From Bacillota bacterium (GTDB lineage Bacteria; Bacillota; Sulfobacillia; DUSP01; JBFMCS01): DNA of 64,000 nucleotides. Positions 31-54,433 of this stretch are shown here, in pieces. The DNA is taken from the NCBI GenBank assembly GCA_040754315.1, contig JBFMCS010000004.1, positions 7,390 to 71,389 on the forward strand. Direction: 5' to 3'. The translations under genes and the position numbers were made by a program. Under the pieces are notes generated by a model. That model made no database searches. It was not told the DNA's origin and saw only the letters and a program-made list of their open reading frames with translations. Position 1 is the first letter of the stretch, and each line of letters opens with the position of its first letter.

Positions 31-558
31 ATGAAGGCTACGCCCAAGATGAGACGTGTCAGGTTCGGATTCTGGGACCGCGTGGTCCTGACGCCGGTGG
101 AGGTGATGGGCATCCGGAAGTGGGCTTTTACGGGATTCCTGGTGCTCCTGGCGGTGATGTGGCTCAGGGAACGGCCTGTGAGTCCCGCCGGTGCGCTCTC
201 CGGGGCGCTCCTGGGGGCGGTACCGTACGCTGGCGCCGTCCTGGCTGGCTCAGTGTTTGTCCCAGCGCTGCTACCCTACATACCGGGAAGGGCACTGTCC
301 TTTAAGGGCGCTCTCCTGGGTCTCCTGTGGGCCCTGGCTTATGCGGCCCGTAGCTACCCTGAGGTGGACTGGGTGGCCTCCGTCCCCTACGTCTTGGTGC
401 TCCCGGCGATTTCGTCATTCCTGGCCCTGAACTTCACCGGTTCCACCACGTACACCTCACTGTCCGGCGTGCTGGAGGAAATGGGGGTAGCCCTGCCTGT
501 AACAGCGGTGGCGGTGGTTCTGGGTGTGGTGTGGGCGGTAGTACGAGCGATTGTATGA
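31..558 (+). CDS. Hydrophobic membrane protein, function unknown. It may be the C-terminal part of a longer CDS, because the reading frame is open to the window start.
   Basis: A 175-aa ORF with several hydrophobic helices. The frame has no stop upstream of position 31, so the true start may lie outside the window. Confidence 0.35.
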   Translation: MKATPKMRRVRFGFWDRVVLTPVEVMGIRKWAFTGFLVLLAVMWLRERPVSPAGALSGALLGAVPYAGAVLAGSVFVPALLPYIPGRALSFKGALLGLLWALAYAARSYPEVDWVASVPYVLVLPAISSFLALNFTGSTTYTSLSGVLEEMGVALPVTAVAVVLGVVWAVVRAIV

Positions 559-854
559 TACCAGTGTGCGAGGAGGAGGTTCCGGTGGGTCTGAGGTACC
601 TGTCCAAATTTGTAACACTTGAACTGGATGAGGAGAAGTGCACAGGCTGCGGGCTGTGCCTGGAGGTGTGCCCTCACGGGGTGTTCTCCCTGGGCGCTGG
701 GCATTCCAGCATCCAGGACCGGGATGCCTGCATGGAGTGCGGGGGGTGCGCCCTGAACTGCCCATCCGGCGCCCTGAGGGTGCGAGCGGGTGTAGGGTGC
801 GCCTACGCCATCTTCCTGGGCAGGCTGAGGGGGACTGAGCCCTGTTGCGGCTGA
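555..854 (+). CDS. 4Fe-4S dicluster ferredoxin-domain protein
   Basis: It carries two CxxCxxCxxxCP motifs (CTGCGLCLEVCP and CMECGGCALNCP). It has an ATG start at 555 and overlaps the upstream membrane ORF. Confidence 0.6.
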   Translation: MIPVCEEEVPVGLRYLSKFVTLELDEEKCTGCGLCLEVCPHGVFSLGAGHSSIQDRDACMECGGCALNCPSGALRVRAGVGCAYAIFLGRLRGTEPCCG

Positions 855-863
855 GTGCCGAGC

Positions 864-892
864 ACAGTTTCCCCGGCTGGAACTACAGCCCA
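864..892. terminator. Perfect 10-bp inverted repeat (ccccggctgg...ccagccgggg) between the convergent ferredoxin and DapA-like genes. It is probably a bidirectional terminator hairpin with no clear U-run.
   Basis: The palindrome is visible in the sequence between the two convergent 3' ends. Confidence 0.3.
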
Positions 893-928
893 GCCGGGGA
901 ACGGCACTTCTGGGTCTAAGCGCCAATC

Positions 929-1828
929 CTAGATGAGACCGCACCCCTCCATGACGCCCCTGAGAGCCCGGGCCTCATCCCGGGTTAGGGGAAGGAGCGG
1001 TTCCCTGGGGCTCCCCGCTGGCAACCCCACCATGGCCGTGGCCGCCTTCATGGTTGCCACGTACCTGGCGCCTTCCAGGTAGGCCAGGAAGGGCGTGATC
1101 TCGGCGTACATGGTCATGGCATCTTCCATATCCCCGTGCTCAGCGAGGATGGAGAGTATCTTGGCCAGCTGCCTGCCTACCACGTTGGCGGGTCCTGAAA
1201 TGGAGCCGCCTGCCCCCAAGAGGGCTCCCTCCAGGGGCGTGCTGTCACTGCCGTTAAGGACTGTAAAGGTGTGTGCGGACCGCATGGCGATCTGGGTGAA
1301 CCTCTTGATATCACCCGTGGATTCCTTGATGAACCTTATGTTCTTCTCCCCCGATAGCCTGGCTGCGAGCTCAGGATGGATATCGACGCCCACTCTCTTG
1401 GGATTGTTGTAAAGGACAACGGGGATGTCCACTGCACCAGAGATCCTCTTGTAGTGCTGGAACAGTTCCTCTTCGGACGGCTTGATATAGGGGGGTGGGG
1501 CCACCAGGACACCGTCGGCTCCAAGTTCGGCGGCACGCCTGGAATAGTCTATCACCTGCGTGGTGGTGACGGCAGTGGTACCCACCACCACAGGGGCCTT
1601 GCCCCTGGCCACCTTCACAGCGACCTTGATGACCTCATCCCTCTCTTGACCTGTGAGGAGCAATCCCTCCCCGGTTGAACCCAGGGGTACCAGCCCGCCG
1701 ACTCCCCATTCCCCAAGAAGGGTCTGACACAGGCGTTCCAGGCCCTCCAGGTCTACCCTGGAGCCGTCCCGGTTCATGGGGGTGATGTTGGCTGCCAGTA
1801 ACCCCCGGATGGGCTTTCTTCCTGCCAT
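929..1828 (-). CDS. DapA/DHDPS-family class I aldolase or deaminase. The family includes 4-hydroxy-tetrahydrodipicolinate synthase, KDG aldolase, NAL and Pyr4H2C deaminase.
   Basis: The 299-aa protein from MAGRKPIRGLLAANITPM has the typical DHDPS-family layout (GSTGE, the active Lys region and YNNP). The ATG is at 1828 with a GGAGGTG RBS. The 133-codon upstream extension in the ORF track is not coding. Confidence 0.75.
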   Translation of the reverse strand: MAGRKPIRGLLAANITPMNRDGSRVDLEGLERLCQTLLGEWGVGGLVPLGSTGEGLLLTGQERDEVIKVAVKVARGKAPVVVGTTAVTTTQVIDYSRRAAELGADGVLVAPPPYIKPSEEELFQHYKRISGAVDIPVVLYNNPKRVGVDIHPELAARLSGEKNIRFIKESTGDIKRFTQIAMRSAHTFTVLNGSDSTPLEGALLGAGGSISGPANVVGRQLAKILSILAEHGDMEDAMTMYAEITPFLAYLEGARYVATMKAATAMVGLPAGSPREPLLPLTRDEARALRGVMEGCGLI

Positions 1829-1859
1829 GGTGCCACCTCCGAATCTTGTTCTCCCGCCT

Positions 1860-3080
1860 TCATTCCACAGGTTTGAGGCTTCCCTCCCACATGTTCTCAA
1901 GGAGCCGCTCCACCTGGGAAAGACCCACATCCCTGGGATTGAATGGCCTGTAGTACTGCTCCATGGTCTCCTCAGCGTAGGACCTGAGGGACTGGCGCTC
2001 AACCCCGGCTTCCTCCAGGCTCTGGGGCAAGTTGACTTCCTCCAGTAGTTCCCAGGAGCGCTGGATGGCCCTCTCCGGCAGATTACTTGCGTCTCCGGCC
2101 ATCCCCAGGGCCCTGCCCATGTAGACCAGTTTCTCCCTGATGTAGTCAATGTTGAGCATGAGGGTGTAGGGCAGAGAGATCCCGCAACCCATCCCGTGGC
2201 CCATGCCCAGGTGATGGGTGAGAACATAGGAAATGCTGTGAGCGTAAAGACCGCCGGTCCAGTTGTACGACATCATCCCCAGGGAGGAGGCCCACGACAT
2301 GTGGTAGCGCGCCTCGATGTCGGAGCCATCCCGGGTTGCCCTGGGCAGGTAGTTGAATACGAACTCAATGGCCTTACAGCTCAGGGCGTCCCCGATGGGG
2401 TATGCCTTGGGATGCACGAGCCCTTCCACTGCGTGGCACAGCGCGTCCAGGCCCGTGCCCGCCGTTACCCTGGGAGGCATGGTGCTGGTCATGATGGGGT
2501 CTATGAGGGCCACGTCAGGGAAGAGCAGCGCGTCCGCGGAAAACACCTTCCTTCCCTCCCTGCTGAAGACGAAGGAGTTGCTGACCTCGCTCCCCGTTCC
2601 CGAGGTGGTCGGGATGGCGATCCGGGGCAGGCCTGGACCTTCGAAACCCTTCCCGCTGATGTACTCGAAGATCTCCCCGGGGTTTGTTGCGAGCATCGCC
2701 GCGGCCTTGGCAGTGTCAATGACGCTGCCGCCCCCCAGGGCCACCACCGTGCCGTACTGGTGCCTCCGGGCCATTTCCCCGGCCTCGCCTGCCAGCTCAA
2801 TCCTGGGTTCGGCCTCAACCTGGCTGAACACATCCACGTTGACCCCTGAGGACTCCAGCGCCTCCACGATTACGTCAACTACGTGGAGGCTGGACAGGGT
2901 GCTGTCGGTGACCAGTAGCGCCCTGGGCTCCCCAAGTCTCCGGGCCTCTTCTCCGGCGGTTCTGGCTACCCCGCAGCCAATTACCAGCTTGCCCAGGGCC
3001 TTGGTGCCTGCCGTTTGCCAGGTGACAGGCCTCTTCAGGCTCTCAGGGGCCTTCTTGAGCATCTCATCGTACAGAAGCAT
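1860..3080 (-). CDS. Iron-containing (group III) alcohol dehydrogenase
   Basis: The 406-aa protein has the GGGSxxD motif (GGGSVIDTAK) and the His-rich metal site (HxxxH...H) typical of Fe-ADH. The ATG is at 3080 with a GGGAGG RBS. Confidence 0.85.
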   Translation of the reverse strand: MLLYDEMLKKAPESLKRPVTWQTAGTKALGKLVIGCGVARTAGEEARRLGEPRALLVTDSTLSSLHVVDVIVEALESSGVNVDVFSQVEAEPRIELAGEAGEMARRHQYGTVVALGGGSVIDTAKAAAMLATNPGEIFEYISGKGFEGPGLPRIAIPTTSGTGSEVSNSFVFSREGRKVFSADALLFPDVALIDPIMTSTMPPRVTAGTGLDALCHAVEGLVHPKAYPIGDALSCKAIEFVFNYLPRATRDGSDIEARYHMSWASSLGMMSYNWTGGLYAHSISYVLTHHLGMGHGMGCGISLPYTLMLNIDYIREKLVYMGRALGMAGDASNLPERAIQRSWELLEEVNLPQSLEEAGVERQSLRSYAEETMEQYYRPFNPRDVGLSQVERLLENMWEGSLKPVE

Positions 3081-3120
3081 TGATCATTACCTCCCTCACG
3101 AACCTTGCCGCTTTGGAATG

Positions 3121-3885
3121 CTACCACCTGTTCCTGGTGTCCACGGGCGAACCCCAAGGCCCCACCAGGCCTCTGTGGGCGGCGAAGCACCAGTCCACCA
3201 GTGTGACAACATCGAAAACCGGAAGGCCGGTAGCCCTCTGGACCGCGGCGGAGAAGGGCACCATGTTGGTGCATTCAAAAACCAGGGCCCCTATGCCGGG
3301 GTTTTCTCGTATCAGGGCCTTGGCTCCCTCTATCATCTCTTGCTCCAGGGTTTCATACTCCAGTTCCAGGTTGTTCCCGATGAAGGCCGTGGCGAACCGG
3401 GAGCCCTCCGGCAGGCCCCCGGTGACGACTGGCACGGTACTGGTGGTGAAGCCTACCTTCTCGAAGTGAACATCGGACATGAACTGGGAGCGCTCCGTCA
3501 GTATGCCGACCCGCTGGTCCGGTCCTATCATCCTGGAGACCAGGGGAACCTGCAGGAGGCTGGAGGTGGCCACGGTCACGCACACGGACCCGGCCAGGTC
3601 CTCCTGGAAGGGTGCCAGGAACCCGCAGCTGGTGGTTATTATCCTTGCCCCTTGCGCCTCCAGTTCCCGGGCGCCTTCGATGAAGGGCTCGATGAGGCTG
3701 GCATCCGGCTCATACCCCATAACGCGGCTGGGGAGAGCCCCCTTGACCACGTGATACCTCACGGGGTAGCGCCAGGTTGAGGCGTGGCCTATGTCCCCGG
3801 GTAGCCTCGGGAAACGGGTGTCCAGCATGAGGATCCCCACTACCTGGCCATAGGTGGTGTATCCACCCCTTGTCCTCTCGCTCAT
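3121..3885 (-). CDS. Asp/Glu/hydantoin-racemase-superfamily-like protein, paralog A. The exact family and function are uncertain.
   Basis: The ~254-aa protein starts MSERTRGGYTTYGQVVGILMLDTRFPRLPGDIG. It shares a conserved N-terminal block with the adjacent paralog. The ATG is at 3885, preceded by a GGGGGGTGA RBS, and overlaps the stop of paralog B. Confidence 0.45.
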   Translation of the reverse strand: MSERTRGGYTTYGQVVGILMLDTRFPRLPGDIGHASTWRYPVRYHVVKGALPSRVMGYEPDASLIEPFIEGARELEAQGARIITTSCGFLAPFQEDLAGSVCVTVATSSLLQVPLVSRMIGPDQRVGILTERSQFMSDVHFEKVGFTTSTVPVVTGGLPEGSRFATAFIGNNLELEYETLEQEMIEGAKALIRENPGIGALVFECTNMVPFSAAVQRATGLPVFDVVTLVDWCFAAHRGLVGPWGSPVDTRNRW

Positions 3886-4640
3886 ACCATCACCCCCCCA
3901 GAGGTGCCGCCGCCCGAGGTGTAGTCGCGCTGGATGACTGAGTGGTAGACCATGGAACAAAGGGTGACAAGGTCATATACCGGCCTTTTGGTCTTGGCCA
4001 TGACCTCCCGGGAATAGGGGCAGAGGCTGGCACATTCAAACAGGAAAGCGCCAATTTCAGGCTCTTTGCCCGTCATTTCCCTGGCAGCGCTGACCACCTC
4101 GGCTTGGATGGCCCCGAAGTCTGCCTCGGGGCGGTCCTCCAGCACGCTACGGGCGAACTCGGAGGTGTTCTCGAGCCCCTGTATCACCAGGCGCGCATCC
4201 CCTGGGTCTAGCCCGGTCGAGCGGAGGTGCTCCCCTGTGAGCTGGTCCCTGGCAGCCGTGAGGACTCCTACCTTCTTCCTAGGGTTCAGTGCCTGCAGCA
4301 CCAGGGGCAACTGGAGAAGGCTGGAGGTGAACACAGGCACACTCACCGCGCGCCGCAGCTCATCCTGGTGCACCGCCAGGCGCTCCGAGCCAGCGGCAAT
4401 TGCCTTTACCCCGCCAGACTCCAGTAGCCGTGCCCCATGTACCAGGGGCTCCAGTGAGTCGTCGTTGGACCCCGGTATCCTTCCGGGGCTCGGGACTACG
4501 TGATATCTCCCGGGGAAAGGAAAGGTCCCCGCATTGCCCACATCCCCAGGGATCCTCGGGAACACCGTTTCCAGCATGAGAATACCCAGGGGAATACCGT
4601 AGGTGGTGTAACCGCCCTTGAAGACTGTGCCCACCGGCAT
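3882..4640 (-). CDS. Asp/Glu/hydantoin-racemase-superfamily-like protein, paralog B
   Basis: The ~252-aa protein starts MPVGTVFKGGYTTYGIPLGILMLETVFPRIPGDVG and shows the same motif set as paralog A. The internal ATG at 4640 was chosen over the ORF-track start to avoid overlapping the AOR gene. Confidence 0.45.
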   Translation of the reverse strand: MPVGTVFKGGYTTYGIPLGILMLETVFPRIPGDVGNAGTFPFPGRYHVVPSPGRIPGSNDDSLEPLVHGARLLESGGVKAIAAGSERLAVHQDELRRAVSVPVFTSSLLQLPLVLQALNPRKKVGVLTAARDQLTGEHLRSTGLDPGDARLVIQGLENTSEFARSVLEDRPEADFGAIQAEVVSAAREMTGKEPEIGAFLFECASLCPYSREVMAKTKRPVYDLVTLCSMVYHSVIQRDYTSGGGTSGGVMV

Positions 4641-4669
4641 CCGTCCCTTCGCCAAGAATCTCTCCTCCT

Positions 4670-6517
4670 TCAGTCCACTGCCCACTCAATGCCCAGTTCC
4701 GCCAGCTTCCCTCTGGTGGGCACTCCCTCATGATCCCAGCCAGACATCTCGTAGAACAACCGCAGGGCGTCGTCGAACTCCTCCTGGATGATGACGGAAC
4801 CCTTGAGCAGACCCGATTCAATGGGCTTCAGGAAGCAGTAGTTCAGGGTGTCACCGGCCAGCCCGAAGCCCTCCCTGAGGTTAAAGAGCCTGCCCAGGTT
4901 GTGGGCCCGCTCCCCAACCTTAAGGAGCTCGTGCACGCTAGTCTCCCAGCCCGTCACTGCCTTTACCAGTTCAACCGCCTCCAGCGGGCGCCATGGTGTC
5001 AGGGTACACAGCCCGCAGTTGGCGAAGTGGTTCCAGTTGGTCACGTAGTAGGCCAGGCGCACCTTCCGGGCTGACATCTCTCCCTCGGGGATGGGCTCGA
5101 GGATGCCGAAGGGTTTCAGCGGGTCGATACTGGCATTCCACATGGTGTCGTGGATGTTGTGACAGTGGTCAGAACCCGTGGGGGAAACGGCGTAGCCCAG
5201 AGCAAGTCCCTTTTTAAACCTGGGGTCGTGAAGGGGTGTCTCCTGTCCCTTCACGTGATGAGCGAATTCCTCGGAGCCCTGCCCGATTTCCCTGGAGAGC
5301 GCCTTTATCCCGCGGGCCATGAGGTCGCCAAAACCCTCTCTCTGGGCAATCATCTCGATACACTGGAGCATGGCCTTGGAGTCACCAAAGCGCACCTCCA
5401 GGCCTCCCATGGAGTCCCTGTCAAGAAGGCCTCGCTCGAAGCACTCCATGACGAAGGCAATGGTGACGCCTGCGGAGATGGTGTCCAGGCAGTACCTGTT
5501 GCACATCTCATTGCCCTTGGCCACGGCCTCCAAGTCATCCACGGCGCAGTTGGACCCCAGGGCGGCCATTGTCTCGTACTCCGGCCCCCCGTAATCGGGA
5601 TCCACTGGGTACTTGCCCTGGGAAGCCACAACGCCCTTGCACTTGATGGGACAGCCGTGGCAGCTCTGCCGGGTAACCTGCAGCTTATCCCTGAGCATCT
5701 CCCCGGAGATGCCCTGGGCGCCCTCGAAGTAGCCTGTGCGGAAGTTGCGGGTGGGAAGGCCTCCTGCGGCGTTGAGTATCAGGATGGAGCCAGCGGTCCC
5801 AGTGTCATAGTACCTTGGGACTCTCTTGGGGGCTTCTTCCGACATGAACCGGGCGAGTTCCTGGACACGCTGGGGGTCGGCCATGGACAGCCTACCCTCA
5901 CCCTTGACGGCTACGGCCTTCAGGTTCTTGGAGCCCATCACAGCGCCCATCCCGGTTCGCCCGGCGAAGTGCCTGAGGTCATTCACCACGCTGGCGTATC
6001 GCACCTGATTCTCCCCAGCCCTGCCTATCTGTGCCACCCTTACCTGGCCATCCCCGAGTTCGTCCCTGATGGCCTGCTGGACAAGCTTGGGCTCCTGTCC
6101 CCAGAGGTGAGTGGCATCCCTGACTTGCACTGTCCCGGGAGAGATGAATAGATAGACAGGCTGGTCAGCCTTGCCCTCCACTACGAGGGCATCGTAGCCG
6201 GTGCGCTTCAGGGCCTGTGGGAAGAACCCTCCTGCCTCTGAGGTCCCGTAGGCTCCCGTGAGGGGAGACCTGGCGGCGACGCTGTTCCGGCAGGTTCCCG
6301 CCAGGTTAGACCCAGCCAGCAACCCAGGAGCGAAGACCAGAACATTATCCGGGCCCAGTGGGTCGACGCCGGGCCTCAGCCTCTTCATGAGCCAGTAGGA
6401 GGTAAAACCGTGGCCTCCGAAGTAGGTGCGGTAGAAGGCCTCAGGATACTCTTCCACCTCCCACCTCCTGCCTGTCAGGTCCACCCGCAATACCTTGCCA
6501 TTATAACCGTAACCCAT
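4670..6517 (-). CDS. aor: Tungsten-containing aldehyde:ferredoxin oxidoreductase (AOR family)
   Basis: The 615-aa protein has an MGYGYNGKVLRVDLT N-terminus and AOR_N plus AOR catalytic domain features. These include the 4Fe-4S Cys ligands and the pterin-binding motifs characteristic of AOR. The RBS is GGGGGAGG. Confidence 0.9.
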   Translation of the reverse strand: MGYGYNGKVLRVDLTGRRWEVEEYPEAFYRTYFGGHGFTSYWLMKRLRPGVDPLGPDNVLVFAPGLLAGSNLAGTCRNSVAARSPLTGAYGTSEAGGFFPQALKRTGYDALVVEGKADQPVYLFISPGTVQVRDATHLWGQEPKLVQQAIRDELGDGQVRVAQIGRAGENQVRYASVVNDLRHFAGRTGMGAVMGSKNLKAVAVKGEGRLSMADPQRVQELARFMSEEAPKRVPRYYDTGTAGSILILNAAGGLPTRNFRTGYFEGAQGISGEMLRDKLQVTRQSCHGCPIKCKGVVASQGKYPVDPDYGGPEYETMAALGSNCAVDDLEAVAKGNEMCNRYCLDTISAGVTIAFVMECFERGLLDRDSMGGLEVRFGDSKAMLQCIEMIAQREGFGDLMARGIKALSREIGQGSEEFAHHVKGQETPLHDPRFKKGLALGYAVSPTGSDHCHNIHDTMWNASIDPLKPFGILEPIPEGEMSARKVRLAYYVTNWNHFANCGLCTLTPWRPLEAVELVKAVTGWETSVHELLKVGERAHNLGRLFNLREGFGLAGDTLNYCFLKPIESGLLKGSVIIQEEFDDALRLFYEMSGWDHEGVPTRGKLAELGIEWAVD

Positions 6518-6884
6518 TAGCCTTGCCTCCCCCGGATGAATGGTATCCCAGTGTGATTGGCGTGCTGGAGCCCTTTCGGCGGCATAGCACCAGGTTCGCC
6601 CATTGCCACCGGCCAGGCTTGAGGTATACCGCTACCTTACCATGGTCAGACCTTCTAGACTAGGATTCGACCCCCTGGCGAAAAGTCTTTTTTTTCAAAG
6701 GGCTTTTGTCTCCCTGCGGTCAGAAGGTTGTCGTCGTGGGTCCTAGTAAGCCAGGATACTAAACTTCTTACGAAAAGTCGCTCCCGGTAAAGCCTGTCGC
6801 TTCACAACCGGGCAGTGCGAGGAACTATTCCACCTCACCGCTCGCCGGCTGCTGGAAAATACCCTGAAGCGCTTGTTAACGGTC

Positions 6885-6950
6885 ATGCAATTCACCCACC
6901 CTAGAGTCAAGTAATTCACCTACTGTCGGTGTCAAGTAATTCACCCACAC
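6885..6950 (+). repeat. Three closely spaced direct repeats, (gtc)aagtaattcaccc(ac), probably transposase-binding sites at a transposon end.
   Basis: The copies sit at about 6887-6900 (partial), 6907-6924 and 6931-6948. They are seen directly in the sequence. Confidence 0.5.
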
Positions 6951-6993
6951 AGGGGGTCGTGGAGCGCAGCGAAGAATGCAGCCATTCTGGTGA

Positions 6994-7614
6994 CAAAAGA
7001 GAAAAAGGAGGAGGCGCCGGAATGGCGCGGAGGGATTTCGCTGCCACGATCTCATTGAGATTTACCTTCACTGGCAAGCGGGAAGTGGGATTCGGAGAAT
7101 AGCATCGAGCCTGGGAATAGACAGGAATGCGGTCAGGAGATACATTCGGAGTGCCGAAGAAGCCGGGTTCACCCGCGAGCAGCCGTTATCTGAGGAGTGG
7201 ATGCGGTTTATACGGGAGGCTTTGCCATTTACTCACGACCCTTTGGCACGGTCCGTGAGGTTTAAGGCCATCGAGCCCTACAGGGAACATATCCGGGGAG
7301 CCTTGAAGGAGAACAAAGCCAGCACCGTGTGGCAAAGGCTCAAGGATGAAGCAGACCTTCGGCTAACATTCCACCTCGGAGGACTCGCCCCGCCCGAAAC
7401 CCAAGACTACATCCACCACCAACTTCGGACAGCCGGCTGTGACCAGCCCCTTTTCACCCAGCAAGTCATCGACAAGATCCATGCCCACTCCAAGGGCCTC
7501 CCTAGGCTCATTAACCGCCTCACTCGCGGTTGCCTACTGGATGCCGCCCTCCATGAAGGGCGCCTCGTCAAGGACTCTCACCTTGCACGTGTCCTCTCTG
7601 ACCTCGAGGCTTGA
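6994..7614 (+). pseudogene. Decayed mobile-element gene. An IstA/Mu-type transposase N-terminal HTH (IASSLGIDRNAVRRYIRSAEEAGF) is fused in frame to the C-terminal tail of an ExeA/TniB-type AAA+ transposition ATPase (DYIHHQLRTAGCDQPLFTQQVIDKIHAHSKGLPRLINRLTRGCLLDAAL). There is no P-loop core and no proper start codon.
   Basis: The reading frame is open from 6994 with no ATG until 7201. The Walker A/B region is missing. It sits next to the repeat cluster and a flanking low-GC segment. Confidence 0.45.
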
Positions 7615-7636
7615 GACCTTCTCATTCACTCCCGCC

Positions 7637-7659
7637 TATCAAACCAAGATGCGCCCGGA
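7637..7659 (+). terminator. Perfect hairpin agatgcgcccggagggcgcatct just after the transposase/ATPase remnant
   Basis: A 10-bp inverted repeat with a 4-nt loop. No strong U-run follows. Confidence 0.3.
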
Positions 7660-7938
7660 GGGCGCATCTTGACCTAATACAAACCCGCCATCTATTCGCA
7701 GACAATTACCGTCAAACTGCTCCGGCATGGACAGCTACTGATGTATTGCCCACACCTCCTCCAATTACTTTATATTGCTTCGACGTTCACCCCGTAAATT
7801 CCTCTGTCTCCGTCTTCCATCCGGACCGGCCGGGGGTTTTTGCAGTGGAATCAAATAGGCGTTGCTCATTGCATCGGGGCTTCTGTGAGTGGAATAACAT
7901 GTCCGATGGCCGATGGGACAAAGGGCTGATTGGCTAAC

Positions 7939-8583
7939 CTAAGGAGTTGCCACAATCAGTTTTAATATTTTACCAAACCTGTCTTCGATGCTGGTGATTT
8001 TTATCCCGGCTTTTTGAATGTTTTCCACTGTCCGCCTGTTGATACTAGAACCTATCATGTACAGGGTCAGCGGATTAAGTAAGTCCATTAACGCTCCTAA
8101 AACAGGATGTTCGCTTCGTACATGTTCCAGTAGGATAATCTGGCCATCAGGCTTACACACCCGGCGTGCTTCAGTCAACCCTTTTACAGGGTCTGGAACC
8201 GAACAAAAAACGCAGGTGGACACTATTGTATCAAAAGTATTATCGGGAAAATCCATTTGCTGAACATCAATTTCAAGTAAGGTTACCTGGGCACCGCTCT
8301 GGTGGACCCTTTTTCTCGCCTTAGCCAGCATTCCTGGACTAAAATCAATGCCGGTAATTTCGCAGTCCGCCGGGTAATAGGGCAAATTCCTTCCGGTACC
8401 CACACCCACCTCCAATACCTTCCCTTTGGCAAAGCCTAACGCTTTTTTTCTCAACCCATCGTCAATCATCCGATCCAGCCAGTCATAGTATAGCGCTGAA
8501 CGGTTGTACCGCCGTTTGATGACCTCGGTTAGGTGGCTCAAATCATTTGTTTGTTCAACCAACTTTGATACCTCCTGCATCAC
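7939..8583 (-). CDS. Class I SAM-dependent methyltransferase (UbiE/COQ5-like, Methyltransf_11). It lies in a lower-GC segment and is probably horizontally acquired.
   Basis: It has the VLEVGVGTG SAM-binding motif I and the acidic motif II. The local GC is clearly lower than in flanking genes. Confidence 0.8.
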   Translation of the reverse strand: MMQEVSKLVEQTNDLSHLTEVIKRRYNRSALYYDWLDRMIDDGLRKKALGFAKGKVLEVGVGTGRNLPYYPADCEITGIDFSPGMLAKARKRVHQSGAQVTLLEIDVQQMDFPDNTFDTIVSTCVFCSVPDPVKGLTEARRVCKPDGQIILLEHVRSEHPVLGALMDLLNPLTLYMIGSSINRRTVENIQKAGIKITSIEDRFGKILKLIVATP

Positions 8584-8942
8584 CTTACGTCAATATCCAT
8601 ATCTATACAGATCTCATTCAGAAGCTGTTTAAACCTTGCTTCAACTGTGCATTCCGGTGAACCGGCCATCTGTTCCGGAGTTTCCGGCCGGGTCGGAGCG
8701 AAGCGACGCCGGTTGTTGTGGATAATATATCCGGGTGGCCGGGATCAGTCAATCTTGGAGAAGGTTTTGGGTGCATGACACCATTGTTGTAGATTTCAAG
8801 ACACCAGGCCATGCTGCTACTATAATGTCAAGTCGTGTATGATGCAAGTCATGCTATTGACGGATCCCGGTAAAGGGGTATACAATGCAGTCGCTGGTGA
8901 CTTTACTATGGTAAAGCGCTAAAGTCCCCGGGGGTGGAGTGA

Positions 8943-9908
8943 ATGGTGCAGCCTACGGTCCAGGAGGCCAGGGCCAGGAGAAGGATATGCCAGCGGCTGG
9001 CGGAGGTCTTTGCCCGGTGGGGCTTCGCTGAGATTGAGGTGCCCTTGCTGCAACCGGCTGAAGATCTTGAACCCGTTGCAGGGCCCCAGCTCATGGAGTC
9101 CTCCTACAAGGTCATTGACCACCAGGGGAGGGTGCTTTGCCTGAGGCCGGACTTCACCGCGGCCATATCCAGCATGGTCACAGGCCAGTGGGCCTGCGAG
9201 CCGAGACCGCTGCGTCTTTCTTACTTCGGTTCAGTGTTTCGCCGGGGGACCTCTGGCATGCGGGAGACGCCCCAGGCCGGGGTGGAGAACATCGGGTCTC
9301 CGCACGGCGATCCTGATGCCGAGTGCATTGCCGTGGCGCTGGAGGGACTACAGGCTGTGGGGGTCCGGGAGGTTCACGTGGCCTTGGGGGATGCCGGCGT
9401 GCTCCGGGCCTGGCTGGACCAGGCGGGATTGACCCCGGACACCCTTAGAAGGACCGTCCAGGCCCTCTCTGGCAAGGATCTCGTATCCCTTGAGCGACTC
9501 CTGGGTGCCGCCGGGGGGGGGCTTGCCCGCTCCTTCCAGGACCTCCTTGATACCCGGGGAGACGGGGATGCCCTGGACAGGGCCTTGAAGGCCTGGCAGG
9601 GCAGTTTGCTTGAGCCTCACCTGGAGGCCCTCCGCTTGACCTACGGGCGCCTCGGGGCCATGGGGCTTTGTGAGAGTGTCTTCGTTGACCTCGGTCTCCT
9701 GCGGGACCTGGACTACTACACAGGCCTGGTATTTGACGTGTACATAAGGGGGCTTGGCGAGCCCGTTGCTGGCGGGGGACGGTACGACGATCTCCTGGGC
9801 CGGATCGGTGCTGCGGAGGCGGCTGTGGGCTTTGCCTATAACGTGGAGGCCATTTCGAAGATATCGACGGAGGGTGCCCTGAGTGGGTTCTCTCTCAGTA
9901 TCCACTAG
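8943..9908 (+). CDS. hisZ: ATP phosphoribosyltransferase regulatory subunit HisZ (HisRS paralog)
   Basis: It resembles class II aaRS-like HisZ and lies immediately upstream of a short-form hisG. Confidence 0.8.
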   Translation: MVQPTVQEARARRRICQRLAEVFARWGFAEIEVPLLQPAEDLEPVAGPQLMESSYKVIDHQGRVLCLRPDFTAAISSMVTGQWACEPRPLRLSYFGSVFRRGTSGMRETPQAGVENIGSPHGDPDAECIAVALEGLQAVGVREVHVALGDAGVLRAWLDQAGLTPDTLRRTVQALSGKDLVSLERLLGAAGGGLARSFQDLLDTRGDGDALDRALKAWQGSLLEPHLEALRLTYGRLGAMGLCESVFVDLGLLRDLDYYTGLVFDVYIRGLGEPVAGGGRYDDLLGRIGAAEAAVGFAYNVEAISKISTEGALSGFSLSIH

Positions 9909-9910
9909 GG

Positions 9911-10579
9911 GTGAGGCGGTTGGATCTTGTTACCTATGCCCTGCCCAAGGGACGCCTCATGAATGGCACGTTGAGGCTTCTCCGGTCAGCGGGGGTGCCC
10001 TGCCCCCAGGAGGACGGGAGGCGTCTTTTACTGGAGATTCCCGAGAAGGGACTTAGGTTCCTTTTCTCCCGGCCCTCGGACGTTCCCGTCTACGTACAGT
10101 ATGGGGCGGCTGACCTCGGCATCTGCGGGAAGGATACCCTCATCGAGATGGGCCCCAAGGTATACGAGGTGCTGGACCTTGGGTTCGGGGCCGGGCGTTT
10201 TGTGCTGGCCACAGTGTCCGAATGGGTGGATCAGGGTTTTGACTGGACAAGGCCTGGGTTGAGGGTGGCCACCAAGTTCCCCAGGATCGCCTCGCTGTTC
10301 CTGGAGAGCCAGGGGGCCAGTCACCACATCATCAAGGTACACGGAGCGGCGGAGCTGGCACCCCGGGTGGGTTTAGCGGAAATGGTATTCGACATAACGG
10401 CCACAGGGAAGACCCTGGCGGAAAACGGCCTCAGGGTGGTGGCCAACGCCGGCACCACAACTGCCAGGCTGGTGGCGAACCCTGCCAGCTACAAGGTGAA
10501 GGCCCGCGAGCTGGGGGACGTCATCGCGAGGGTAAAGGGGTTTATCCAGAGCGAGGGTCACACGCTGGCCGGGCTTTGA
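9911..10579 (+). CDS. hisG: ATP phosphoribosyltransferase, short form
   Basis: It has the LPKGRL motif and HisG-family layout, is ~222 aa, and starts with GTG. Confidence 0.9.
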   Translation: MRRLDLVTYALPKGRLMNGTLRLLRSAGVPCPQEDGRRLLLEIPEKGLRFLFSRPSDVPVYVQYGAADLGICGKDTLIEMGPKVYEVLDLGFGAGRFVLATVSEWVDQGFDWTRPGLRVATKFPRIASLFLESQGASHHIIKVHGAAELAPRVGLAEMVFDITATGKTLAENGLRVVANAGTTTARLVANPASYKVKARELGDVIARVKGFIQSEGHTLAGL

Positions 10580-10601
10580 TGAAGGCCATCGGGGAGAGGC
10601 G

Positions 10602-11189
10602 GTGAACCTGTTGCGCGAAGTGGAGCACAAGAGGACCACACGGGAGACGTCCATTCATCTCCGGATCAACCTGGACGGTAATGGCGAGTCCCGTGTTGAG
10701 GTTGGAGGCTTTCTCGGTCACATGCTGGATACCCTCTCAAGGCATGGCATGTTTGACCTCGAGCTCAAGGCCGAGGTGTTCCTTGACCCTGACGGGCACC
10801 ACACAGCAGAGGACCTTGGGATCGTACTGGGAGAGGCCATAAGGAGGTCTGTGGGCCAGGGCCAAGGCCTGTCCAGGTTCGGCCACTCGGTGGTGCCCAT
10901 GGACGATGCCCTGGTGGAGGTGGCCCTGGACCTGTCGGGAAGGTCCTACTGCAACTACGACCTGGGGCCTGTGGGGGACCTGGGGGTCAATGCGTTCTTA
11001 CGCGAGTTCTTCCTGGGTTTTTCCCGCAGGGCCGAGGCCACCATCCACCTGAGGAGGCTGGCGGGTCACGATGCACACCACGTGGGCGAGGCTGCCTTCA
11101 AGGCCTTTGGGCGGGCTCTCTCCCAGGCTGTCTCACCCGATCCCAGGCTCAGCGGGAGGGCGCTGTCAACCAAGGGCGTGCTGTCGTGA
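10602..11189 (+). CDS. hisB: Imidazoleglycerol-phosphate dehydratase
   Basis: It has the RTTRETSI, HHTAEDLGI and HLRRLAGHDAHH motifs of IGPD. Confidence 0.9.
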   Translation: MNLLREVEHKRTTRETSIHLRINLDGNGESRVEVGGFLGHMLDTLSRHGMFDLELKAEVFLDPDGHHTAEDLGIVLGEAIRRSVGQGQGLSRFGHSVVPMDDALVEVALDLSGRSYCNYDLGPVGDLGVNAFLREFFLGFSRRAEATIHLRRLAGHDAHHVGEAAFKAFGRALSQAVSPDPRLSGRALSTKGVLS

Positions 11190-11932
11190 ACATGCTGGTG
11201 CTGCCGGCCATTGACATTATGGGAGGCCAGTGCGTCCGGCTCCTGAAGGGCAGGCCGGAGGAGAGCAGGGTCTACCACCAAGATCCCCTGGACGCCGCCC
11301 TCCGGTGGGAGCAAGAAGGGGCCGGAGCCCTCCACCTGGTGGACCTGGATCGTGCCCTGGGAGGGAAGCCAAATTCCGATGCTGTCAGGCGCATCGTCGA
11401 CTCCGTGACGGTCCCCGTGCAGTTGGGGGGGGGCTTGAGGAGCAGGGAGGCGGTAAAGGAGGCGTTTGGGTCCGGGGTGTGGAGGGTCGTCATGGGCACC
11501 GCCGCGCTGAGGTCCAGGGACCTTCTTTGCTGGTGCCTGGACCGGTTCGGGGACAGGGTGGTAGTCGCCCTTGATCACAGGGAGGACCGGGTGGTGGTTT
11601 CCGGCTGGACCCAGGAGCACGGCCTCTCATTGAAGGAGGCTACTGAAACCCTGCTGGAGCAGGGGGTCAGGGAGGTACTGGCCACCGCGGTAGAACGGGA
11701 TGGCACCATGGAGGGTCCGGATCTTGCAGGCTTGGCCATCCTGGTACGCTCCGGGTTGAGGGTGATAGCATCGGGCGGTGTCACCAGGCTTGAAGACCTG
11801 CGGGACCTCGCGGGGCTGCCTAACCTGACCGGGGTTGTCATTGGAAGGGCTCTCTATGAAGGCGTTTTATCCCTGGGGGAGGTCCTTAGGGTATCCCGTG
11901 GTGAGGGGAGGCTTGATTGTGAGCGAGGTTGA
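11186..11932 (+). CDS. hisA: ProFAR isomerase (HisA)
   Basis: It has the [15 protein letters not shown]-terminus and the (beta/alpha)8 HisA/HisF fold signature. No hisH or hisF is adjacent. Confidence 0.8.
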
Positions 11933-12527
11933 ACAGGGGACACTTACCCCCGTGGTGGTACAGCACGCTATCACGGGACAGGTGCTCATGCTGGCCTATA
12001 CCAACGCTGAGCTCCTGGAGAGAACCGCCAGGGAAGGGCGTGTCTGGTTCTGGAGCAGGTCCAGGGGGGGGCCCTGGCTGAAGGGCGCTACCAGCGGGAA
12101 CTACCTGAACGTACAGTCCATCACAATGGACTGTGACCAGGACGCGGTACTGGTGGAGGTGACCCCTGAGGGGCCCGCATGCCATACAGGCAAGACCAGC
12201 TGCTTTCACAGGCCGGTTATGGGTAGTGCATCCCCCGGCATCCTCCTGAAGCTGGGCGGGGTAATCGAGAGCCGGGTGATGAAGAAGCCCGAGGGGTCCT
12301 ACACGGCAGCCCTGGCTGGGAAGGGACCGGAGGCCATACTGAGGAAGGTCTCGGAGGAAGCCTTTGAGGTAGTCCTGGCCGCCAAAGAGGAGGGAGCCCC
12401 GGGCTTGGTGTGGGAGGTTGCTGACCTCTGGTACCACTGCATGGTGCTGTTGAGCGTCTTGGGATACAAGGCCGAGGACGTCCTTGAGGAACTTGCCCGC
12501 AGGGCGAAGAGGGATGAACAAGGGTGA
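11913..12527 (+). CDS. hisI: Bifunctional phosphoribosyl-AMP cyclohydrolase / phosphoribosyl-ATP pyrophosphatase (HisIE)
   Basis: It has the HisI domain (LIPAVVQ-like [19 protein letters not shown]) followed by the HisE MazG-like domain. A TTG or GTG start after a GGAGG RBS is preferred over the ORF-track start, which overlaps hisA. Confidence 0.8.
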
Positions 12528-13036
12528 GTAGGCTGCTTTCCAGAAGGAGGGGATAGAATATACGTGGGCTTGAAAGTACCCTGTGTGAACCGGAGAAGTG
12601 CCCCGAGTGCGGGGCAGGAAGTTACCTCGTACGACCGGATGGTCCGCTTCGGCTGCCGTTCTGAGCATGGGCGACAAGTACGACCTTCATATCCTGGCCT
12701 CTTGGCCACCCTCCAGGTTAAGGGCTCTCCATTAGCCCAGGCCCTGCGCTTACTGTGTTCCTCGGGCCCTCTTGCATCCTAGTCACTGGATCCAGGCGTC
12801 GTAGCCCCTGGGGCCTGGAACACACTACGGGGATGGTAGCCCAGGTTCCGCCACAGCATCGCAATAGTGTCTCCAGTGCGGGCCACTTATACCCCCTTTT
12901 TTATGACTCTCTTATGTGCGACCTGCCTTTTTACATGCCTTTTTTACAGGCTTTCCTGTACAGTCTAAGGGGGGTAGTCTCCTGCCCTCAGCCCAATTGT
13001 CTGACTCGGATGCATTCCCTGTAAGGGAGGATCAGC

Positions 13037-13525
13037 ATGTCACATCAGTGTGAGTGTCTGGAAACTCTCCTGGAGGAGAGTATCAAGCGGAATGGCCATG
13101 GGTTTGTGTCCATCCTTCAGGACATTCAAGAAGACTGCGGTTACTTGCCCGAGGATGCACTGAGGGCCCTTGCCAGGAAGACAGGGGTTCCCCTGAGTGA
13201 GATCTACCGCACAGCAACCTTCTACAACTACTTCTCACTTGTACCCCGCGGGAAGCACCAGGTAGTCGTATGCACAGGGACGACTTGTCACGTCCGCGGA
13301 GCCAAGCGGGTGTCCAGGGAGATCACAAAGAACCTGGGAATACGCGTGGGCGAGGTGACTGAGGATCGTGAGTTCTCACTAGAGTCTGTAAACTGCCTTG
13401 GATGCTGCGCCTTTGCTCCCGTGGTGGTGGTGGATGGCAGGCACTACGGTAACCTGACTCCTGACGAGGTGAAGAAGGTGTTAGACTCCGTCAAGCGAGA
13501 AGCCGTGACCGTTGGAGCCACATGA
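13037..13525 (+). CDS. NuoE/HydC-like thioredoxin-fold [2Fe-2S] protein (24-kDa subunit homolog)
   Basis: It has the C...C...CxxC pattern (CTGTTCHVRG...CLGCCAFAP) of the NuoE family. Confidence 0.8.
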   Translation: MSHQCECLETLLEESIKRNGHGFVSILQDIQEDCGYLPEDALRALARKTGVPLSEIYRTATFYNYFSLVPRGKHQVVVCTGTTCHVRGAKRVSREITKNLGIRVGEVTEDREFSLESVNCLGCCAFAPVVVVDGRHYGNLTPDEVKKVLDSVKREAVTVGAT

Positions 13526-13539
13526 AAGGAGAACCGTTG

Positions 13540-16500: not shown

Positions 16501-16692
16501 CAGACTCCGCTGGATCGCTATGCTCCAGGGAAGATCCCGTTGAGTGAACGAATCAGGGGCTTCCGGGAGGTAGAAATGGCGTACTCCGAGGAAGTCGCGT
16601 GTAATGAGGCGTCCCGTTGCCTGCGGTGTGACGTGCAGCAAGATGACGAAGAAGAACAAGACAACCGGCACTCTTTGGCGGGAGCATCCTAG
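13540..16692 (+). CDS. Fusion protein: a thioredoxin-like 2Fe-2S domain, the NuoF/HydB (51-kDa) FMN/NADH module, a Cys-rich Fe-S linker, and a GltD/NfnB-like FAD/NAD(P)H pyridine-nucleotide-disulfide oxidoreductase domain
   Basis: The NuoF core carries GGAGFPT, the FMN site and the 4Fe-4S motif ESCGKCFSCRVG. A Cys-rich linker follows (CRATVCESLFRSPCQNSCPAG...VCGRVCHHPCESRC). The GltD-like Rossmann motifs VAVIGAGPAGL and VAVVGGGNAAIDAA come next. An ATG at 13540 after an AAGGAG RBS is the likely start. Confidence 0.8.
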   Translation: MSVTPRRLLAPGDLAELADCLKTRLDTRKPCVTVCGDTGCTVCGSLGLAESFRNIIDKKGLSDKVDLKVTGCLGFCEQAPAVMAMHDEVLYCKVTPDDVEELLEAIIAGKVVDRLVYADPVTGRIIPRARDIPFYSRQTRMLLEANWHTNPVDIYDYIARGGYHALSRVLAGMNPEEVIAMMKEACLRGRGGAGFPTWLKWDIARKQLEKERYMICNADEGDPGAFMDRSILEGNPHALLEGMLIAGFAIGSSNGIIYVRAEYPTAVAKIQHAIQQCQDLGLVGKDILGSGFDFDLTISKGAGAFVCGEETALIRAAEGGVAEPRQKPPYPSESGFKGKPTVINNVETLANVPIIVERGAGAYRSLGTEKSGGTKIFCLVGKVLNAGLIEVSFGTRLGDVIFDIGGGTKKGKRFKAVQTGGPSGGCLPADKLNLHIDFEELALAGSIIGSGGMIIMDEDTCIVDVTRYFLGFLKSESCGKCFSCRVGIERMLEIVDRIAQGRAVESDLDLLEELALTVKDTSLCGLGQTAPNPVLSSLRYFREEYLEHIRHKFCRATVCESLFRSPCQNSCPAGVDVPIYVDQIRHGEFIEAYETVQKNNPFPVVCGRVCHHPCESRCRREQIDKPVAIRALKRFAADYAVSNGQRPARVPGIKSSKKVAVIGAGPAGLTAAFYLGRKGHQVTVFESSPVPGGMLALGIPDYRLPKDSLNADIEAIRNSGVKMRMNSALGRDFTLQDLREDGYEAIFLAIGAHKDRDMGIPGEGLEGVLSSVEFLRAVNLGHQVDVDGKAVAVVGGGNAAIDAARVALRKGARVVHILYRRRQEDMPAMKEEIADALAEGIHLTQLTAPVRILGDDKVRAIECVRMGLGDFDETGRRRPVAEAGTEFHLPVDVVIRAIGQAPDVPDTVRKTVSIAGNGTIAVDSRSLSTQVAGVFAGGDCVTGPAMAIDAIAQGRIAAASIDKYLGGDGVLWGDDEEPVRQFRSEIIQTPLDRYAPGKIPLSERIRGFREVEMAYSEEVACNEASRCLRCDVQQDDEEEQDNRHSLAGAS

Positions 16693-16710
16693 AAGCAGGG
16701 GTGTATTTGA

Positions 16711-53178: not shown

Positions 53179-53339
53179 GTCCAGGTTCTCCTCTCGCTCC
53201 CCTAACGGGGTTCGTTAATGTGACGGATAACCTTCTACACAGGCTGCCCAGGTTCCTCTTGTCGTAGACCTAGGTTCCGGGTGAGCGACAGGAGGATTCC
53301 GGTGCCGGGCGGAGAAGGAATGGACTGACAAACCCATAC

Positions 53340-53556
53340 TCTCCGAGCCTGCCTCTCCTAAGGGGTCATCTACGGGAGACAGGCCGTGCCAGCCCCATGG
53401 CTGGCAAACGGTAGGCTGGGAAACCTGCCTGCCCCCCATCGTGGAAAGGAGGCGTCTCTATGAGGAGAAGGCCAGGATCCGGAGCGGTGGTTCTGGCCGA
53501 TCGCGTTTTTTCGGGAAGGATGTCCGGGCAGACCATGGTGAAAGGAGAAGACCATT
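53340..53556 (+). promoter_or_regulatory. Structured leader upstream of tupA with a terminator-like hairpin and U-run (ggccag...ctggcc gatcgcg ttttttc). It is a candidate Moco/Wco-type riboswitch or attenuator, with class unassigned.
   Basis: The GC-rich leader and hairpin plus T6 lie about 40 nt before the tupA RBS. Tungstate/molybdate transporter genes are often controlled by Moco-family riboswitches. Confidence 0.2.
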
Positions 53557-54414: not shown

Positions 54415-54433
54415 CTGTAGCAGGAGGTTACCG

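Follow-up and report, generated by a model that had tools for sequence, protein, structure and literature searches.

A conserved aldehyde:ferredoxin oxidoreductase operon with racemase-like and DHDPS-family genes in an uncultured Bacillota bacterium, with a probable role in the catabolism of an amino-acid-derived compound

Bacterial aldehyde:ferredoxin oxidoreductases (AORs) are abundant in the genomes of anaerobes, and their physiological aldehydes are mostly undefined. The 64-kb stretch of DNA analysed here, to which we refer as the window, comes from the metagenome-assembled genome (MAG) of an uncultured Bacillota bacterium, and close to its start an aor gene is followed by two racemase-like genes, a gene for an iron-containing alcohol dehydrogenase (Fe-ADH) and a gene of the DHDPS/NAL superfamily. 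Which compound do these five genes serve, and which aldehyde does the AOR meet? We propose that they are probably a dedicated catabolic operon for an amino-acid-derived compound that is degraded via an aldehyde intermediate, and hydroxyproline isomers appear to be the best-supported class of substrate. A more specific reading, plausible if still short of probable, is that the operon encodes the lower part of an anaerobic, ferredoxin-coupled route of the hydroxyproline type, in which a tungsten AOR would replace the NAD(P)-dependent semialdehyde dehydrogenase.

All five genes lie on the minus strand, and their products correspond to the NCBI proteins MEW6080305.1 to MEW6080309.1, encoded on a contig of 78.9 kb. 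The first gene of the operon is aor (4670..6517; MEW6080309.1), which carries the AFOR_N and AFOR_C domains. It is followed by two paralogs of the racemase family NF005679 (PRK07475), paralog A (3882..4655) and paralog B (3121..3885), by a group III Fe-ADH (1860..3080; PF00465 and PF25137), and by a Schiff-base enzyme of the DHDPS/NAL superfamily (929..1828; PF00701, 210 bits) that belongs to a rare subtype, designated DHDPS2 below. These assignments, made with Pfam and NCBIfam, bear out the five gene families named in the initial annotation of this DNA. The genes are tightly packed: AAGGAGG stands between the aor stop codon and the start of paralog A, the stop codon of paralog A overlaps with the start codon of paralog B in ATGA, and a GGAGG-type ribosome-binding site is present in each of the gaps before the Fe-ADH gene (40 nt) and the DHDPS2 gene (31 nt). 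Where paralog A begins is ambiguous; its start codon may be the TTG at 4655 (after AAGGAGG), the ATG at 4640 or the GTG at 4685, which is the JGI call. When positions 400-7400 were scanned with sigma-70 promoter and terminator consensus patterns, the sites were no more numerous than in shuffled sequences, and no terminator-like site was found on the operon (minus) strand. The 74-nt spacer between the DHDPS2 gene and the convergent hgcB gene holds a GC-rich hairpin (854..908, strand unspecified). Its minimum free energy is -39.9 kcal/mol (z = -3.07); shuffled sequences averaged -29.4, and 0 of 200 were equally stable. This hairpin was missed by the consensus terminator scan because it has no U-tract, and it is a candidate bidirectional terminator that would mark the 3' end of the operon. 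Given the packing, the ribosome-binding sites, the lack of an internal terminator and the terminal hairpin, the five genes are likely to form a single transcription unit, which makes the co-transcription assumed in the initial annotation plausible.

Comparison of the neighbourhood across genomes, which had been suggested together with that annotation, revealed that the gene set recurs (loci are given L numbers below). The same five genes in the same order were found in a contig from a hydrocarbon metagenome (L001; 83-92% protein identity) and in a JGI twin contig (L092; Ga0484001_0000384, 124.9 kb; about 98.5% DNA identity), in both cases between hisZ and hgcBA. The next-closest DHDPS2 (54% identity) is encoded in L087 together with an AOR ortholog (575 bits) and two PRK07475 paralogs. 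There, a sigma54 activator gene stands before the co-directional array Fer2_4-DHDPS1-DAO-DHDPS2-RACE-PyrRedox2-BFD/SO_alpha_A3-RACE-AOR-ThiS-IlvD/Edd-MFS-SBP, with gaps of at most 107 nt among 13 structural genes, and the operon thus encodes, besides the second DHDPS paralog (DHDPS1), a heteromeric DAO-type dehydrogenase. Over this large distance, the AOR, the two racemase paralogs and DHDPS2 have remained together as a conserved core. The assembly GCA_013178305.1 has a same-strand cluster of about 36 kb that contains orthologs of the AOR (73%), of both racemases (72% for the pair) and of the Fe-ADH (613 bits). Also part of this cluster are two DHDPS-family genes, DAO-506, Fer2_4, PyrRedox2 and Fer4, the large and small subunits of AcnX, a class V aminotransferase, pyruvate dehydrogenase-like E1/E2 components, regulators of the GntR and IclR types, and an ABC importer of the Liv type. 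In L002 the Fe-ADH ortholog (613 bits) adjoins the racemase pair, and a DAO-type dehydrogenase gene stands beside the orthologs in L087 and L091/L002.

More distant matches of DHDPS2 point in the same direction. The best match on Sinorhizobium meliloti pSymA (35% identity) is the DHDPS-family member of a cluster that otherwise encodes a GntR regulator, an amino-acid ABC transporter, an FAD oxidoreductase, an SDR, an aldehyde dehydrogenase and a proline-racemase family protein, and the best match on Azospirillum brasilense p3 has a GntR regulator, an amino-acid ABC transporter and a large FAD oxidoreductase as its neighbours. The 4-hydroxyproline pathway is defined by an epimerase, a DAAO, a DHDPS-family deaminase and an aldehyde dehydrogenase; the DHDPS member acts as the pyrroline-4-hydroxy-2-carboxylate (Pyr4H2C) deaminase, and alpha-ketoglutarate semialdehyde is the substrate of the aldehyde dehydrogenase (PMC4113996). 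The gene content of the S. meliloti neighbourhood is exactly this published signature, and AcnX genes are typical of hydroxyproline clusters (PMC5144071). Among the substrate classes considered in the initial annotation (2-keto-3-deoxy acids, hydroxyproline-type and amino-acid-derived compounds), the last two receive the most support, from the DAO complexes, AcnX, amino-acid transporters and GntR/FCD regulators encoded beside the orthologs.

The reading of the operon depends strongly on whether its last gene encodes the lysine-biosynthetic enzyme DapA, as both NCBI (MEW6080305.1) and JGI annotate it (4-hydroxy-tetrahydrodipicolinate synthase). It would then merely end an unrelated aldehyde/alcohol operon, and the five genes would not be one pathway. 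The protein does score just above the cutoff of the DapA model TIGR00674 (210.4 vs 206.15), and the window contains no other DHDPS-family gene, although dapF (26061-26900) and dapL (26904-28085) are present in it, as had been noted before. With the same model, however, an E. coli DapA sequence scored 421.6, non-DapA paralogs from catabolic clusters 166-296, and the L087 ortholog 189.9, which is under the cutoff. The motifs of DHDPS2 are GSTGEG, PPPYIKP, YNNPKR, IKESTG and ISGPAN; the equivalents of the Schiff-base Lys161, Tyr133 and Arg138 are kept (IKESTG, LYNNPKR), whereas GTTGE (with Thr44) and NPxPxK, both carried by every true-DapA-clade sequence in the alignment, are replaced by GSTGEG and ARYVATMKA. 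In a neighbor-joining tree with 100 bootstraps, a distance method applied to a limited reference set, DapA and spirochaete DapA formed a clade without DHDPS2 in 98/100 replicates, and DHDPS2 fell into a five-member clade of its own in 100/100. Clustering with the lysine-pathway DapA, which the initial annotation had named as an outcome that would speak against its proposal, was thus not observed.

The distribution of DHDPS2 is also unlike that of a housekeeping enzyme. Among 5.8 billion proteins, only 4 homologs reached 49% identity or more, the next ones having at most 40%, a metagenome pattern scan with the DHDPS2 alignment recovered one relative (36%) on a 1.9-kb contig, and the linkage to the AOR and the racemase pair is kept at the distance of 54% identity. 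The joint best match among solved structures was PA0223 (PDB 3NA8; 163 bits), a DapA paralog of Pseudomonas aeruginosa that has no DHDPS activity in vitro (PMC3281039). PA0223 shares the PLGSTGEG, YNNP and KESTGDI signatures and falls into the same loose non-DapA assemblage, but its identity to DHDPS2 is in the thirties, and its GTSG lacks the Arg138 equivalent that DHDPS2 keeps in KRVG. On these grounds we judge that DHDPS2 is not the lysine-pathway DapA, and the biosynthetic assignment is very improbable; the annotation of MEW6080305.1 is probably an over-call, because the score lies only about 4 bits past the TIGR00674 cutoff. The housekeeping dapA must presumably be located outside the window. 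The prediction for DHDPS2 is instead that it sets free an aldehyde, either as a deaminase or as an aldolase.

A candidate enzyme for the oxidation of such an aldehyde is encoded by the first gene. The protein matches AFOR_N (PF02730, 252 bits) and AFOR_C (PF01314, 401 bits) over its full length, and its nearest solved relative is the AOR of Pyrococcus furiosus (1AOR; 389 bits, residues 3-610 aligned). The ligands of the [4Fe-4S] cluster, CxxCxxxC and a distal Cys, are kept (SCHGCPIKC aligns with PCYACPIGC, and CGLCTLT with AGLCLFT), and so are the equivalents of Glu313 (in the GPEYET/GPEYES alignment) and His448 (in the GG(C)H segment) and the pterin motif LDTIS. By these features, which it shares with 1AOR and with the bacterial AORs 9MQX, 9G7J and 8C0Z, the protein is classed as a tungstopterin-type aldehyde:ferredoxin oxidoreductase. 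Unlike those AORs, it shares a dedicated operon with genes for racemase-like proteins, a DHDPS-family protein and an Fe-ADH. The operon has no AorA/AorC-type partner subunit and no MoaD/ThiS-like gene; ThiS-like genes are found in L087 and L002. The best NCBIfam matches of the Fe-ADH, all far under their cutoffs, were GbsB (236 bits), FucO (216), SarD (210) and 4-hydroxybutyrate dehydrogenase (199), and its best PDB matches were methanol dehydrogenase (203 bits) and FucO (163). It has no close characterised relative. These sub-threshold best matches are enzymes for functionalised aldehydes.

The two racemase-like proteins, which are 39% identical to each other, scored 243.1 (paralog A) and 299.6 bits (paralog B) with the NF005679 model (cutoff 231). 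Paralog B has both canonical cysteines in its catalytic motifs TTSCGFL and FECTNM. In paralog A the corresponding motifs are AAGSERL, with Ser for the first Cys (which is Cys in the L001 ortholog), and FECAS, and this protein is the fastest-evolving of the five in comparison with L001 (83% identity; 41 nonsynonymous and 51 synonymous codon differences). The AlphaFold model of paralog B (pLDDT 89.4) predicts a two-domain racemase fold, and its top Foldseek matches were arylmalonate decarboxylase, hydantoin racemase, Asp racemase and Glu racemase (probability 1.00, TM 0.5-0.7), with 12-18% identity to those solved structures. A metagenome scan using paralog A alone returned 0 relatives, with patterns that were over-specific.

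PRK07475 is the bacterial sister group (outgroup) of the algal dimethylsulfoniopropionate (DMSP) lyase Alma1, and bacterial PRK07475 proteins have been reported to lack DMSP lyase activity (PMC10349084). Alma1 is covered by the same subfamily model, and the motifs of paralog B are nearly identical to the xCGF and ECT[E/Q/N] of Alma (PMC10349084); unlike Alma1, the window proteins are a tandem pair, one of which lacks the first cysteine, and their genomic partners point to an amino-acid racemisation that feeds a dehydrogenase rather than to beta-elimination. Alma-like beta-elimination was set aside for these paralogs, though not firmly, as the DAO linkage fits racemisation better. That linkage became apparent in a genome scan for PRK07475, which sampled the family more or less at random rather than its nearest relatives and serves as family-wide context and not as a survey of orthologs. 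Among the 83 PRK07475 loci listed, a DAO-family FAD oxidoreductase was the commonest partner (45 loci), followed by a thiamine pyrophosphate (TPP) enzyme (30 loci, largely in Rokubacteria and Proteobacteria) and then by TRAP/TAXI or Liv transporters. In anaerobes, Fer2_4, PyrRedox2 and Fer4 subunits, TAXI-TRAP or Liv transporters and FCD regulators are often added, and the module TAXI-DctM-RACE-DAO-FCD-BFD-DHDPS-Fer2_4-PyrRedox2-Fer4 is recurrent. The racemase family and the DHDPS relatives are recurrently linked to FAD-dependent amino/imino acid dehydrogenases, amino-acid transporters and GntR/FCD regulators. The pair in the window can be placed, by family model and motifs, in the bacterial sister group of Alma1, which is habitually tied to FAD-dependent amino-acid dehydrogenases.

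Another, striking type of neighbourhood was seen in this family. In L024 (Spirochaetes; 3459-13690), a PRK07475 gene belongs to one operon with genes for DapB, a true-clade DapA, the heteromeric DAO complex, an amino-acid kinase and two Asd-family proteins, and in L058 this module is repeated up to the contig end. In L019 (Clostridiales; 6571-11539) and L014 (Peptococcaceae; 2-1649), the PRK07475 gene adjoins DapB. One idea is that this linkage might reflect a reversed catabolic route of the diaminopimelate (DAP) type.

The comparisons above establish which genes these are, how they are packed, that their linkage is conserved and that DHDPS2 does not belong to DapA. What the operon in the window acts on, what each enzyme does, which way the flux runs and whether the two paralogs form a hetero-oligomer is inferred, as follows. 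The PRK07475 pair would act as a 2-epimerase or racemase of an amino or imino acid, of the two-cysteine type independent of pyridoxal phosphate, with paralog B catalytic and paralog A either a degenerate partner or a second specificity. The pair would supply the stereoisomer used by an FAD-dependent dehydrogenase of the DAO type, which would be encoded elsewhere in the genome (it is adjacent in the relatives) and would produce a cyclic imine or a 2-oxo acid. DHDPS2 would bind this product via its Schiff-base lysine and deaminate or cleave it to an aldehyde or semialdehyde, the model case being alpha-ketoglutarate semialdehyde. The tungsten AOR would then oxidise the aldehyde to the acid and reduce ferredoxin, doing the work of the semialdehyde dehydrogenase of aerobes, and the Fe-ADH may reduce the same aldehyde to a hydroxy compound as a redox valve or for detoxification.

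The proposed order of steps resembles that of the bacterial L-hydroxyproline cluster (Lhp/Hyp), in which an epimerase, an FAD-dependent DAO-type (sometimes heteromeric) dehydrogenase, a DHDPS-family deaminase and an aldehyde-oxidising enzyme act in sequence. The components of that cluster are 4-hydroxyproline 2-epimerase, cis-4-hydroxy-D-proline dehydrogenase, Pyr4H2C deaminase, alpha-ketoglutarate semialdehyde dehydrogenase and AcnX/LhpI. As a candidate for the Pyr4H2C deaminase step, the window has a DHDPS-family protein that is not DapA, and its 35% relative in S. meliloti lies in a cluster with a ProR-family protein, an FAD oxidoreductase and an aldehyde dehydrogenase. Amino-acid transporters and GntR-type regulators are a further likeness, and relatives of the window operon carry the DAO complex and an AcnX-type dehydratase. 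Unlike the hydroxyproline cluster, the candidate epimerases in the window belong to the Asp/Glu-racemase superfamily and are a tandem duplicate, a gene of the proline-racemase family is absent, and an AOR with ferredoxin would take the place of the NAD(P)-dependent Aldedh enzyme, for which there is no gene. Moreover, the Fe-ADH is added, the dehydrogenase is outside the operon, the organisms are strict anaerobes and the substrate is putative. By analogy, the operon may work like the bacterial hydroxyproline cluster, but we do not regard it as a member of it. Another likeness is to the Fe-ADH and tungsten AOR modules of anaerobes and to the archaeal branch of the non-phosphorylative Entner-Doudoroff pathway, where one aldehyde is shared by a ferredoxin-dependent oxidation and a pyridine-nucleotide-dependent reduction and, in the archaeal branch, a DHDPS/NAL-family enzyme is the source of the aldehyde. 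The window differs from these in its racemase pair, its link to a DAO-type dehydrogenase and its lack of sugar-acid genes.

Several points weigh against the hydroxyproline-type reading. No DAO-type dehydrogenase, AcnX or transporter gene was found in the operon, in the 64-kb window or in about 5.3 kb beyond the window start, and the operon alone cannot convert hydroxyproline. A gene for the oxidising step that would make the DHDPS2 substrate is thus absent from the window, and in this respect the initial annotation is not supported. DHDPS2 is just 35-40% identical to the DHDPS-family genes of hydroxyproline-type clusters, and outside its own clade its sister relationships are unsupported (2-21/100 bootstraps). 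It keeps the equivalent of Arg138, which in DapA binds the carboxylate of aspartate semialdehyde, so other carboxy-aldehydes are equally possible. On the side of the racemases, a TPP enzyme is the partner of many proteobacterial PRK07475 genes instead, so that no single substrate can be assigned to the family as a whole, and we know of no biochemical datum for any bacterial PRK07475 protein. An AOR gene was found within 10 kb of a PRK07475 gene in 0 of 80 randomly sampled genomes, which makes the link to an AOR a peculiarity of the DHDPS2 lineage. Finally, the AcnX of the relative is of the two-subunit kind, and the archaeal two-subunit type is a mevalonate-5-phosphate dehydratase (PMC8184944).

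Two other aldehyde-forming schemes can be considered for the same genes. In a sugar-acid route (Dahms or non-phosphorylative Entner-Doudoroff), DHDPS2 would be a 2-keto-3-deoxy-aldonate aldolase that forms pyruvate and glycolaldehyde, lactaldehyde or glyceraldehyde; the AOR would oxidise and a FucO-like Fe-ADH reduce the aldehyde, and the racemase-like pair would epimerise the acid substrate. In the non-phosphorylative Entner-Doudoroff pathways of archaea, an AOR-type glyceraldehyde oxidoreductase is indeed combined with a KD(P)G aldolase of the DHDPS/NAL family. The genes directly after AOR-ThiS in L087 encode an IlvD/Edd-family dehydratase and an MFS transporter, and the lactaldehyde reductase FucO is among the better matches of the Fe-ADH in both NCBIfam and PDB. 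Among the family models, however, DHDPS2 scored lowest with those for KDG-aldolase and KdgD (94 and 92 bits), a dehydratase, a kinase and a sugar transporter are absent from the window operon, and the recurrent partners of the racemase family and of the DHDPS2 relatives (FAD amino-acid oxidoreductases, amino-acid ABC/TRAP transporters and GntR regulators) are a poor fit. We also know of no two-cysteine Asp/Glu-type racemase that uses sugar acids, and we consider this route unlikely.

Aspartate semialdehyde is the hub of the other scheme, in which DHDPS2 would interconvert a tetrahydrodipicolinate-like compound and pyruvate plus aspartate semialdehyde, the AOR would interconvert the semialdehyde and aspartate in place of aspartokinase and Asd, the Fe-ADH would form homoserine, and the racemase pair would act on diaminopimelate or aspartate. 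Its purpose could be the catabolism of diaminopimelate or a related cyclic imino diacid, or an ATP-saving biosynthetic shunt. The retained Lys161, Tyr133 and Arg138 equivalents agree with such chemistry, DapA is the top-scoring family model for DHDPS2, and the operons of Spirochaetes, Clostridiales and Peptococcaceae with PRK07475 and DapB (L024, L019 and L014) suggest a link to DAP-pathway-like chemistry with the AOR as the counterpart of Asd plus kinase. The formation of 4-hydroxy-tetrahydrodipicolinate is, however, generally held to be effectively irreversible. DHDPS2 lies outside the DapA clade (98/100) without GTTGE and NPxPxK, its relative PA0223 is inactive as a DHDPS in vitro (PMC3281039), and no DapB-like gene is present in the window or in the L001 and L087 clusters. 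In addition, no relevant publication was found on diaminopimelate catabolism via a D-amino-acid dehydrogenase. All this makes the scheme quite unlikely, and we return to the hydroxyproline-type route as the preferred reading.

A bolder version of the preferred reading, doubtful but worth stating, is that the bacterial PRK07475 proteins are a new family of amino/imino acid 2-epimerases, present here as a heteromeric pair, which together with the new DHDPS subtype and a tungsten AOR would constitute an undescribed ferredoxin-coupled anaerobic pathway. As part of this version, the substrate might be of the hydroxyproline type or, more radically, diaminopimelate or a cyclic imino diacid processed via a reversed DapA/DapB-like sequence, and the AOR might be a semialdehyde oxidoreductase. 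Our literature search found no paper that combined AOR, racemase, DHDPS and ADH, and none that linked alpha-ketoglutarate semialdehyde, a ferredoxin oxidoreductase and hydroxyproline.

How the operon is controlled can be approached through its leader. A 30-nt element on the minus strand, GGTCTGACCATGGTAAGGTAGCGGTATACC (6623..6652), lies about 105-135 nt 5' of the aor ATG and occurs once in the 64-kb window. It is identical in the window and L001, though the rest of the intergenic leader has diverged, and it holds GntR/FadR-like half-palindromes, which makes it a candidate GntR/FadR-type operator and/or promoter. The element is absent from L002, L087, L088, L089, L024, L019 and L031. Prompted by the sigma54 activator in L087, we also scanned for a sigma-54 promoter pattern, which gave 31 matches against 31 expected and 0 in the aor leader. 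Further upstream, a low-GC segment of 1277 bp (7373-8649), which contains a class I SAM methyltransferase gene (7939-8583), is missing from the 98.5%-identical L092 and is therefore a strain-level indel. Beside it (6882-6948 and 7201-7614) are three 18-nt direct repeats with 24-25 nt spacing and a fragment of an ExeA/PEP-CTERM-type ATPase, which look like transposon-end remnants.

On the other side, the operon converges with a gene that the initial annotation had taken for an adjacent ferredoxin and a likely electron acceptor of the AOR, an assignment that did not hold. This plus-strand gene (531-854) meets the HgcB model NF040864 (113.5 bits, cutoff 99), and its product has two CX2CX2CX3CP motifs, CTGCGLCLEVCP and CMECGGCALNCP, and the C-terminus PCCG with the vicinal Cys typical of HgcB. 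It directly follows an open reading frame (31-558, plus strand) that matches the C-terminal transmembrane half of HgcA (profile positions 153-323), the window start cutting the gene so that only its 3' part is included. The complete HgcA of the closest relative, L001, has the cap-helix motif NVWCSAGK, and the arrangement hgcAB-MarR is also found in L001 and L092. In its model match, motifs, C-terminal CC and adjacency to hgcA, the window hgcB agrees with the known HgcAB pair. We therefore assign the two genes, from these matches, to the hgcAB mercury-methylation pair, with hgcB outside the AOR operon. HgcB as the partner ferredoxin of the AOR was rejected in view of the opposite strand, the HgcB equivalog match and the pairing with hgcA; the hairpin lies between the two units, and proximity is the sole link between hgcB and the AOR. 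The organism of this MAG is a candidate mercury methylator. It is also probably endospore-forming, as indicated by a YlbJ sporulation membrane protein (50606-51814, minus strand; 324 bits, over the cutoff).

Metal supply for the AOR can be examined at the far end of the window. An Rfam scan of the entire window had a Moco/tungsten-cofactor riboswitch (53329-53467, plus strand; 57.3 bits) as its sole match, with none 5' of aor, and behind this riboswitch lies a tupA/tupB/wtpC-like ABC transporter (53557-56211, plus strand). The remote tungstate uptake system of the initial annotation is thus present as a Tup-like transporter with a riboswitch directly upstream; all three proteins score under the tungstate equivalog cutoffs, so that it may carry either tungstate or molybdate. 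The support that this Tup/Wtp-like transporter lends to tungsten as the AOR metal is circumstantial. Positions 56625-58058 (plus strand) encode an MttB-superfamily methyltransferase (371 bits with the trimethylamine model, cutoff 525), probably a non-pyrrolysine quaternary-amine methyltransferase. Elsewhere in the window, positions 13037-18992 (plus strand) encode a NuoE-like protein, a NuoF-like/GltD-like fusion of 1056 aa, and proteins of the Fer2_4+Fer4 and Glu_synthase-FMN types. Together these are a candidate for a flavin-based NADH/ferredoxin oxidoreductase, which could recycle the ferredoxin that the AOR reduces.

In conclusion, the operon offers a useful lead, drawn entirely from genomic context, for the substrate of an AOR and the function of PRK07475. 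Its conserved linkage of one AOR to a specific, putatively aldehyde-forming enzyme provides a testable substrate hypothesis, and for the PRK07475 family, which has more than 7000 members and is closer to the algal DMSP lyase than any other bacterial family, the consistent link to FAD-dependent amino-acid dehydrogenases suggests which assays to choose. The hgcB gene next door flags the organism as a potential mercury methylator. As far as we are aware, the glycyl-radical dehydratase pathway is the only anaerobic route for hydroxyproline. If our reading is true, a tungsten- and ferredoxin-dependent route would matter for the turnover of collagen and necromass in anoxic, hydrocarbon-impacted habitats, and it would provide the first physiological role for bacterial PRK07475 and a defined physiological substrate for a bacterial AOR.

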